64,000 bases of DNA from a virus: the IMG/VR virus record IMGVR_UViG_3300045988_180412, positions 1,841 to 65,840 of that record; one strand, given 5' to 3'. How positions within the stretch are numbered: position 1 is the first letter of the stretch; every line of letters begins with the position of its first letter. Below are positions 54,273 through 54,852 of the stretch, in pieces. The notes beneath the pieces were generated by a model. The model saw only the letters and a list, made by a program, of their open reading frames with translations, had not been told where the DNA came from and did not search any database. The translations under genes were made by a program, and so were the position numbers.

Positions 54273-54852
54273 GTCCGAGGAGAGGCAACGGCCTTACGGT
54301 TGCCACGCGGGACTCGCGAATAGCGAGATACAGAGACTGCGATAGTGCCTGCTGATGAGCATACAGTACGGGTAGCACCCGAAAGCTCCGCCGAGGTCGG
54401 CGCTCCTTGAAGCCAAATGACGGCTTACAAGTGAACCGGCAAACCAAGCCGCTGCAATACCGAGCGGCACGACATAGGGAGAGGCGAAAGATACCGGAAC
54501 AGAGCAATAGGCGTTGACATGTCCGCCGACAGCATCCGGGGCAAATGTGCGGAGAGTAGCGTCTCCGCGATGACATACGGCGGCATAAACAGACGTCAAT
54601 GGCGAGGTACAGCCTTTGCCGCCGAGGTATTGACAAAGATTAGAAACTTTGGTTTCTATATATATAGCCGCAGCTCGCGAAGGCGTTAAGACCCCATCAG
54701 AACCTGCTGCGGCACTAAGGCCGACCAACCCTGACCACCCTCGAAAGTATGCGCGATAGGATAGCCGCGCATCAGGACATCGCAGACAGCTTTGGCTGTG
54801 CTATTCGGAATTTGAGGACGCTGTGCGCGGTTCGACTCCGCGCCGAGGGACA
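54273..54852 (+). ncRNA. about 580-nt candidate ornate structured RNA ending in a tRNA-like domain
   Basis: No credible ORF is present. Many helices are visible: 54313-54327, 54549-54568, 54523-54528/54578-54583, and 54667-54673/54707-54713. GAAA-type loops are present. The 3' domain at 54738-54850 has T-arm GCGCGG-TTCGACT-CCGCGC. Confidence 0.45.

Follow-up and report, generated by a model that had tools for sequence, protein, structure and literature searches.

A conserved structured non-coding RNA with a tRNA-like 3′ end in temperate Bacteroidales phages

GOLLD and ROOL are among the largest bacterial RNAs of no known function, and they are known for their niche (phages and tRNA islands) and for their cages. 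Both are found in phages near tRNA islands (PMC12286853; PMC5737381). GOLLD has a conserved 3′ part and a variable 5′ part, with tRNAs sometimes located covalently within the linker (PMC12286853), and ROOL (RF03087) is an RNA of about 580 nucleotides (nt) with pseudoknots, found in phages and prophages near tRNAs, whose function is not known (PMC5737381; PMC12286853). Here, we analyzed a 64,000-nt stretch of IMG/VR virus record IMGVR_UViG_3300045988_180412 (hereafter, the window). Its positions 54273-54852 on the plus strand, about 580 nt, are a conserved structured non-coding RNA with a tRNA-like 3′ end. The RNA is modular: a 5′ domain that differs from lineage to lineage precedes a conserved core of about 190 nt, and the 3′ part is a tRNA or tRNA-like module.

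The RNA resembles GOLLD (RF01998) in being a large phage RNA near a tRNA island, in which a variable 5′ domain is followed by a conserved core and a linked tRNA or tRNA-like unit. It resembles ROOL in its length of about 580 nt, its pseudoknotted fold, its occurrence in a phage or prophage, and its proximity to tRNAs. An earlier note, made from the nucleotides of this DNA without database searches, had suggested a member or an analogue of the giant-RNA class in a Bacteroidota phage, and the setting holds: the RNA lies in a temperate phage (integrase, RecT, and Ant) beside tRNA or tRNA-like units. The likeness to GOLLD and ROOL is one of niche and layout, and the cages are a feature of the known systems. 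On the other hand, GOLLD is longer than 800 nt as opposed to about 580 nt here, its covariance model gave no match, and the present RNA belongs to phages of Bacteroidales hosts. In ROOL, few nucleotides are invariant and the fold includes three pseudoknots and six multistem junctions; its covariance model gave no match either. The RNA of the window, in contrast, is built around a compact core of 190 nt, in which about 46 positions are invariant and one pseudoknot has been demonstrated, and it represents a narrow sampled family.

The earlier note had also raised membership in ROOL or GOLLD, or in HEARO, OLE, or raiA. In the whole window, Rfam models at the gathering score matched only a Pistol ribozyme and a tRNA-Met (30513-30584). 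Searches at E≤10 of positions 53600-56000, 54268-54660, and 54650-54880 yielded no ROOL, GOLLD, HEARO, OLE, raiA, RNase P, intron, T-box, or ribozyme, and searches at E≤5 of three distant relatives (loci L027, L042, and L045) yielded no ROOL, GOLLD, HEARO, OLE, or raiA match. The RNA is thus not a member of ROOL, GOLLD, HEARO, OLE, or raiA; it is a distinct family in the same niche, being large, phage-borne, and tRNA-linked. A divergent ROOL or GOLLD member overlooked by the Rfam models would share this niche and size class, but no match was obtained even at E≤10 in a search space of 393 nt, nor in the three distant relatives, and we consider this explanation extremely unlikely. The RNA may be an analogue of the ROOL/GOLLD class, with which it has in common its location in a phage or prophage and in or near a tRNA island, a 3′ part that is conserved and a 5′ part that varies, and covalent linkage to tRNA or tRNA-like units, as described for GOLLD (PMC12286853). 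The family is new with respect to Rfam 15, the GenBank phage records, and the literature searched; a 2023 catalogue, in which about 10,000 viral RNA candidates are listed without names (PMC10690425), lies outside this comparison.

Other known RNA classes were considered and rejected. For transfer-messenger RNA (tmRNA), ARAGORN made no call, the only Rfam hit was a 5.9-bit match on the T loop, and the two strands of the acceptor are both contained in the final 112 nt. For RNase P RNA, there was no Rfam match, and the look-alike strings GGAACAGAGC and CAGAACCU form no P4-like pairing and are placed elsewhere by the covariation. Strings resembling group I introns, noticed by eye, found no support from Rfam or from conservation. 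A template for a reverse transcriptase (RT) of the UG27 or diversity-generating retroelement type was rejected, as none of the 28 open reading frames (ORFs) scanned in the window showed an RT domain. The non-coding RNA arrays of UG27 RTs are structured and pseudoknotted and occupy long intergenic regions in Bacteroidota prophages (bioRxiv 10.64898/2026.09.22.753630). They differ from the present RNA in that units of about 150 nt are repeated in tandem and accompanied by an RT and two accessory genes, whereas here the core is single-copy and the ORFs scanned include no RT.

A conserved core supported by covariation

Positions 54273-54878 form the gap between the stop codon of an HTH_17/excisionase-like gene and the ATG of a gene for a 113-amino-acid (aa) protein with beta-solenoid repeats (54879). 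The long ORFs across this gap are just two minus-strand frames (129 and 144 aa), accompanied by short plus-strand frames. The region had been judged to lack a plausible coding frame, and no frame is conserved among the relatives. A 23-nt block (54311-54333) is missing from L008, L020, and L018, and indels of 1-2 nt occur in L018, L019, and L025; these changes fall within each of the frames, and the region is therefore not conserved as coding sequence. The folding energy of the single sequence is modest, with z = -2.5 on either strand compared to shuffles, and the real evidence for structure is comparative.

Close copies with 80-93% identity (L008/L010/L023/L037, L024, L019, L020, L021, L022/L025, and L018, which is truncated and more divergent) were obtained via the upstream protein and via an exact core pattern in the metagenome collection. 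Close copies are present in the ENA assemblies ERZ1034873, ERZ1035037, and ERZ15610113, and the hosts are Muribaculaceae or of the Prevotella CAG-873 type. Since the whole phages carrying them are about 80-90% identical, conservation alone is of little weight, and compensatory substitutions and indels of whole hairpins are the informative changes. A profile of the close copies was run against loci around distant homologues of the downstream PD-(D/E)XK nuclease, and this sequence profile recovered the center of the RNA in unrelated phage contigs and one Bacteroides sp. metagenome-assembled genome (L042, L045/L046, and L027). L056, L052-L055, and L119 were gained from loci fetched via the small gene preceding the RNA in L027, and L071 was the sole new genuine member among 53 loci from a final, widened pattern scan. 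In total, eight phage or prophage lineages were obtained, all in Bacteroidales phage contexts. In all lineages, the element lies on the same strand, right after a small gene, and 1-3 kb upstream of the nuclease/RecT module. The upstream gene of the distant lineages encodes 77-80 aa without a Pfam match, and its copy in L027 matches PHROGs of unknown function.

An nhmmer profile of the core gave a single match in the window (E 6e-55), where the core is single-copy, and matched the relatives at E 1e-29 to 1e-54, cleanly splitting members from non-members. Among the pattern searches, the first two exact core patterns returned the same phage lineage only, and a third, degenerate pattern re-found L045/L046. 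L049-L051, which came from a two-block pattern with too short a gap, were chance matches and were rejected. Searches of the GenBank phage records by blastn in its distant mode, with three different family members as queries, gave no match. The RNA was absent from seven IMG/VR loci carrying relatives of the beta-solenoid gene (L001-L007), indicating that this downstream gene is not linked to the RNA, and it was also absent from the chromosomal loci of HTH homologues (L011-L017).

The core (54447-54642, plus strand) is the sole part common to all lineages and comprises six helices closed by a pseudoknot. The loop of hairpin P_A (54449-53/54463-67) pairs with a segment just 3′ of P_C to form the pseudoknot (PK; 54455-61/54626-32). 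Between them lie P_B (54494-98/54535-39), P_E (54511-13/54524-26 and 54516-17/54522-23), which includes the invariant GACWUGUCCG, and P_D (54549-55/54562-68) with its conserved loop AGUAGCGA. P_C (54578-85/54617-24) surrounds a conserved 30-nt loop with GGYGAGGUACAGCC and a mini-hairpin (54601-03/54612-14). ACAUAG is another of the invariant strands. The two PK strands read AAUACC/GGUAUU in the lineage of the window, AUGUUG/CAACAU in most other lineages, and UAUAUUG/CAAUAUA in L045.

The core structure was derived from covariation between lineages and checked with RNAalifold and pair counting on a hand-curated, N-padded alignment; a plain MAFFT alignment misplaced the 5′ strand of P_C and shifted L045 and L052, which is why hand curation was used. 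In the hand-curated alignment, 95.8% of the cells of the 40 core pairs were paired, compared to 74.1% after shuffling and 32-46% with slid partners. Changes on both sides were observed in 28 of the 40 pairs (17.0 after shuffling), the covariation score was 0.578 (0.191 after shuffling), and none of 500 shuffles reached the observed pairing values. Across the 13 sequences, 46 columns of the core alignment were invariant, many of them in unpaired strands. About 25 cells of the core pairs were G·U and one was A·C. This tolerance of G·U and near absence of A·C indicate selection on the plus-strand RNA rather than on DNA.

The covariation, with supported pairs that include the pseudoknot, agrees with the earlier view of a large, helix-dense structured RNA in a Bacteroidota phage (here, a temperate phage of Bacteroidales) and assigns it to the plus strand. 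As for the helices proposed by eye, GCGGAGA/TCTCCGC (54549-54568) is P_D and has six covarying pairs. CCGCCG/CGGCGG (54523-28 with 54578-83) did not survive, and the covariation instead pairs CGGCGGCA (54578-85) with UGCCGCCG (54617-24); that helix and a GCGGCA/UGCCGC helix suggested by RNAalifold were superseded by P_A, P_C, and the pseudoknot. The GAAA strings that had been read as loops are present, but they lie in junctions of the consensus and are not GNRA tetraloops. Two candidate dimerization palindromes, GACAUGUC and GACGUC, were rejected, as they are non-palindromic in most lineages and GACWUGUC forms the P_E hairpin.

Domains flanking the core and the tRNA-like 3′ module

The 5′ domain (54273-54446, plus strand) is a multi-helix junction found only within the lineage of the window. 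RNAalifold on six sequences of this lineage gave 39 pairs, five of which had compensatory changes. The helices include GGAG/CUCC (54279-82/54386-89), the hairpin GGCAAC/GUUGCC (54284-89/54299-304), which is GGCGAC/GUCGCC in L018, and CGCGG/CUGCG (54306-10/54337-41). The hairpin CUCGC-GAAUA-GCGAG (54313-54327), already pointed out in the earlier note, is real yet variable: it is replaced by CCGGC-GGAGA-GCCGG in L019 and by CUGGC-GGAGA-GCCGG, with U·G at the second pair, in L025, and it is missing from L008, L020, and L018. Entire hairpins are inserted, deleted, or exchanged among the relatives. The 5′ domains of the other lineages differ from that of the window and begin at the stop codon of the upstream gene. 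A string resembling a hammerhead ribozyme, CUGAUGAG...GAAA (54352-54383), lies in this non-conserved domain and was rejected, as its stem II is non-canonical, it has no Rfam match, and it is absent from the other lineages.

The core is followed by a linker (54643-54737) with two hairpins. The first is A/U-rich and is formed by UAGAAACU (54641-48) and GGUUUCUA (54651-58). The second is formed by GCCGCAGC (54667-74) and GCUGCGGC (54706-13) and corresponds to the GCCGCAG/CTGCGGC pair (54667-54713) recognized earlier by eye, which is confirmed by the change of a C-G pair to U-A in three relatives. An equivalent hairpin of other sequence follows UAUAGC in L056 and L119, with GCCCGUAC/GCACGGGC at this place in L056.

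The last part of the RNA, about 112 nt (54738-54849, plus strand), is tRNA-like. Its acceptor stem, CCCUCG/CGAGGG (54738-43/54844-49), shows a compensatory change of U-A to C-G, and its D-like arm, UGCGCG/CGCGCA (54750-55/54766-71), which has a GG-containing loop, shows compensatory changes of C-G to U-A and A-U to G-C. The T arm, GCGCGG-UUCGACU-CCGCGC (54825-30/54838-43), is invariant in the lineage of the window and is supported by its sequence only. ACA follows the T arm and acceptor, and the anticodon region is replaced by variable central hairpins. The hallmarks of a tRNA-like element are thus present, namely an acceptor stem stacked on a T arm with a loop of the GTTCRANTC type, and a D-like loop with GG. 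The tRNA models rejected the module: ARAGORN made no call with relaxed settings, and RF00005 gave no match at E≤10. Accordingly, the 113-nt tRNA-like 3′ domain proposed in the earlier note stands as a tRNA-like fold with covarying acceptor and D-like stems, without a tRNA call and with an unvarying T arm.

At the equivalent place in other lineages, the units are closer to tRNAs. The unit of L027 is a tRNA-Asp according to ARAGORN and scores 44 bits with RF00005, that of L042 scores 33 bits with the Rfam tRNA model, that of L052 scores 53 bits with RF00005 and has a 60-nt insertion, and L045 carries two tRNA-type units. Because true tRNAs occupy the same position in relatives, the module of the window is a degenerate descendant of a tRNA gene. 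Two units were long for their scores: those at 3659-3790 of L052 and 4191-4301 of L029 reached 53 and 49 bits with RF00005 and yet are 132 and 111 nt long, owing to large insertions, and ARAGORN misses the former.

The succession of a long RNA and a minimal tRNA-like fold (acceptor, T arm, and elbow, no normal anticodon arm) is also known from MALAT1 and MEN-beta with mascRNA, and such a fold could recruit RNase P to make a 3′ end. These RNAs differ in being eukaryotic and nuclear, and the score of the Rfam mascRNA model here, 13 bits (E 4.9), reflects a resemblance of shape and not homology.

The strict linkage of a tRNA or tRNA-like unit 60-100 nt downstream of the core, in the lineages whose 3′ side was read, and the many conserved unpaired nucleotides could also be accounted for if the core were a new ribozyme or a tRNA-binding element acting on the adjacent unit or on host tRNAs; a Pistol self-cleaving ribozyme does occur elsewhere in the same phage. 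However, no ribozyme, RNase P, or T-box model matched, the hammerhead-like string is confined to the non-conserved 5′ domain and absent in other lineages, and a conserved complementarity to the tRNA unit was not apparent. We regard a catalytic or tRNA-interacting core as very unlikely.

Genomic slot of the RNA

The phage is temperate, with an integrase (50129-51295), repressor-side genes, a resolvase, RecT, and Ant. The integrase gene is located about 3 kb from the RNA, on its other side. This location bears on the view that the region is a DNA-level element (an origin, attP, or a packaging site) or a non-functional spacer with incidental hairpins. Such a view could draw on the A/T-rich stretch at 54641-54666 and on the resemblance of the T-arm-plus-acceptor sequence to the tRNA 3′ ends that serve as att cores. 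It is disfavored and highly improbable, given the distance and opposite side of the integrase, the pattern of G·U and A·C pairs, which indicates selection on one RNA strand, and the covariation of both the long-range pseudoknot and the 5′ acceptor strand with its 3′ partner.

The RNA lies in the early region, directly 3′ of the small HTH gene, in a slot that is a tRNA island in sister phages. The upstream gene (54072-54272, plus strand) encodes a 66-aa HTH_17/excisionase-like protein that matches Pfam HTH_17 and HTH_29 and a PHROG excisionase/regulator, and the RNA begins right after its stop codon. A 53-aa protein of Prevotella sp. CAG:873 is 100% identical to this HTH protein over 80% of it. 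In the sister phages L029, L030, L038, L039, and L040, one to five tRNA genes are located upstream of the PD-(D/E)XK nuclease gene, and Rfam searches of 16 related loci found tRNAs only. Since these tRNAs occupy the same slot, the RNA occupies the early tRNA island of the phage. The downstream gene varies between lineages, which argues that the RNA is not the leader of one gene.

The early unit runs on past the RNA, via two small ORFs, into a second gene-free structured region (55479-55991, plus strand), whose conservation extends to L008, L020, and L025 and includes compensatory changes in the T arms; it has no Rfam match at E≤10. It contains two tRNA-like modules (55616-55706 and 55786-55895) and, at 55752-77, a hairpin with the motif GUCUGCGAAGAU, which is also found in L042 and L056. 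The region is closed by a strong terminator (55925-55984), in which a hairpin (55925-55972; -32.9 kcal/mol, z -7.0) is followed by the U run AUUUUUUAUU. Ends made of a hairpin and a U run also close the RNA regions of L052, L056, L057, and L059.

This layout is relevant to two explanations in which the RNA acts in cis. One is that the element serves only the processing or stability of the mRNA, with the tRNA-like units punctuating the early transcript via RNase P and the fold protecting the 3′ end of the HTH mRNA. The element is indeed contiguous with the upstream ORF, has no recognizable promoter of its own, and is part of an arrangement with three tRNA-like units between coding blocks. However, about 46 invariant positions, many of them unpaired, and a pseudoknot conserved despite differing flanking genes far exceed what a protective hairpin needs, and we consider this explanation unlikely.

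The other cis-acting explanation is a processive antiterminator of the HK022 put or Bacillus EAR type, in which the nascent core would fold, modify RNA polymerase, and allow readthrough of the tRNA-like units and the 55925-55984 terminator, so that transcription reaches the genes for recombination and replication. The place between the first early genes and a strong terminator is the classic one for such an element. The strand never varies, the PD-(D/E)XK/RecT module is always downstream, and the conserved sequence of distant lineages begins at the upstream stop codon, implying co-transcription. Against this, known antiterminator RNAs are 70-120 nt long and have no tRNA partner, no match to the put or EAR model was obtained, and in sister phages whose operon is laid out in the same way, the core is missing and the slot is taken by plain tRNAs or by an RNA unrelated to it. 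An antiterminator is thus distinctly unlikely.

Three of the sister phages without the core, L057 (3232-3510), L059 (3232-3680), and L068 (3232-3530), carry a different conserved RNA in the same slot, directly upstream of a tRNA or tRNA-like unit. In L057 and L059, it reads AUAGAACGCCGA...GGCGCAAGUGACGGC...AUAAGGCAA. The conserved slot RNA of these three phages is a candidate for a second RNA family. A further conserved structured segment, AUUGCCCCUGCURCGCUGGU...CCCUCGCAAGAGGAUAAAAAGCGGAAAUAAGUCG, is common to L052 (3800-4575) and L119 (3900-4150), and a tRNA-like unit with the acceptor GCAAGCG/CGCUUGC and the T arm GAGGG-UUCGACU-CCCUC is common to L052, L056 (3640-3790), and L119. Many short contigs with the small upstream gene (L120, L121, and L060-L067) end a few hundred bases after that gene, and assemblies seem to break at the RNA/tRNA-like region.

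Elsewhere in the window, the Pistol self-cleaving ribozyme is located at 45648-45713 on the plus strand (RF02679; 63.4 bits, the gathering score being 34.5) and is closely followed by a 194-aa ORF (45745-46329) without a Pfam match. The tRNA-Met (CAT; 30512-30584, minus strand) lies among structural genes and is the sole unit of the window accepted by the tRNA finders. Toward the ends of the window, there are an IS-type transposase gene with HTH_38 and rve domains (62862-63815, minus strand) and a gene for the DNA polymerase III beta clamp (867-1982, plus strand).

Possible mode of action and significance

With moderate confidence, we favor the reading that the locus encodes a large structured non-coding RNA of a family not described before, carried by temperate Bacteroidales phages, and that this RNA would be released by means of a tRNA handle and act in trans. 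The RNA would be transcribed with the first early genes. The tRNA-like module, with its acceptor stem, T arm, and D-loop elbow and no normal anticodon arm, would then be the handle for host RNase P and the tRNA 3′-end enzymes.

In general, the acceptor/T-arm stack and the elbow are the parts that the enzymes of tRNA processing recognize, and in the phage T4 tRNA cluster, which includes the species 1 and 2 RNAs, host tRNA enzymes process the early-transcribed tRNA-type units. RNase P is described in one account as a molecular ruler for tRNA (PMC4919913). A cut at about 54737/54738 would free a folded RNA of about 465 nt with a defined 3′ end and a tRNA-like RNA of about 112 nt, an outcome with parallels in MALAT1/mascRNA and in the stable RNAs that the T4 tRNA cluster yields. 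The likeness to tRNA islands of the T4 type extends to the sister phages, which hold ordinary tRNAs in the slot of the RNA. The difference is that the units of the window are degenerate, with no ARAGORN or Rfam call, and that the main product would be a large pseudoknotted RNA unrelated to tRNA. The released core might be a stable RNA that acts in trans by binding a partner from the host or the phage, in a role of the GOLLD/ROOL type. The many invariant unpaired bases of the core speak for either a specific partner or a tertiary fold, and in this way for a trans-acting function.

Several points weigh against release by a tRNA handle followed by action in trans. Recognition of the module by RNase P is assumed, and the module fails the tRNA models. 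For the 5′ end of the RNA, no promoter was recognized: a scan for sigma-70 promoters and terminators gave no more than shuffled sequences did, with a model that is inapplicable to Bacteroidota. The folding energy of the single sequence is modest, and the covariation counts come from an alignment hand-fitted to the structure, with its strands anchored by invariant flanks. The family is narrow, with eight lineages confined to Bacteroidales phage contexts. Finally, a trans-acting function and multimerization are conjectural.

A more specific version is that the core and its tethered tRNA-like units form a new RNA machine. This might be an RNA-only multimer displaying or sequestering tRNA-shaped cargo, as proposed for GOLLD, or an RNA that, early in infection, captures a host factor recognizing tRNA (RNase P, an anticodon nuclease, a CCA-adding enzyme, or the ribosome, for example). 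We offer this version tentatively, as a possibility that is more doubtful than probable.

The RNA of the window is an independent third family in the ROOL/GOLLD niche and comes from a different host phylum. The constrained core, its physical linkage to tRNA, and the contents of the slot in sister phages suggest that phages have repeatedly solved one problem with a large RNA joined to tRNA-shaped units. For structural and genetic tests, the family offers a molecule that is shorter and comparatively easy to handle, and its 3′ modules point to a class of degenerate tRNA-like genes in gut phages that standard tRNA finders miss. If the core and its tRNA-like units do form an RNA machine, this phage would be a compact, genetically tractable gut Bacteroidales model for the question of why giant RNAs are embedded in the tRNA islands of phages.

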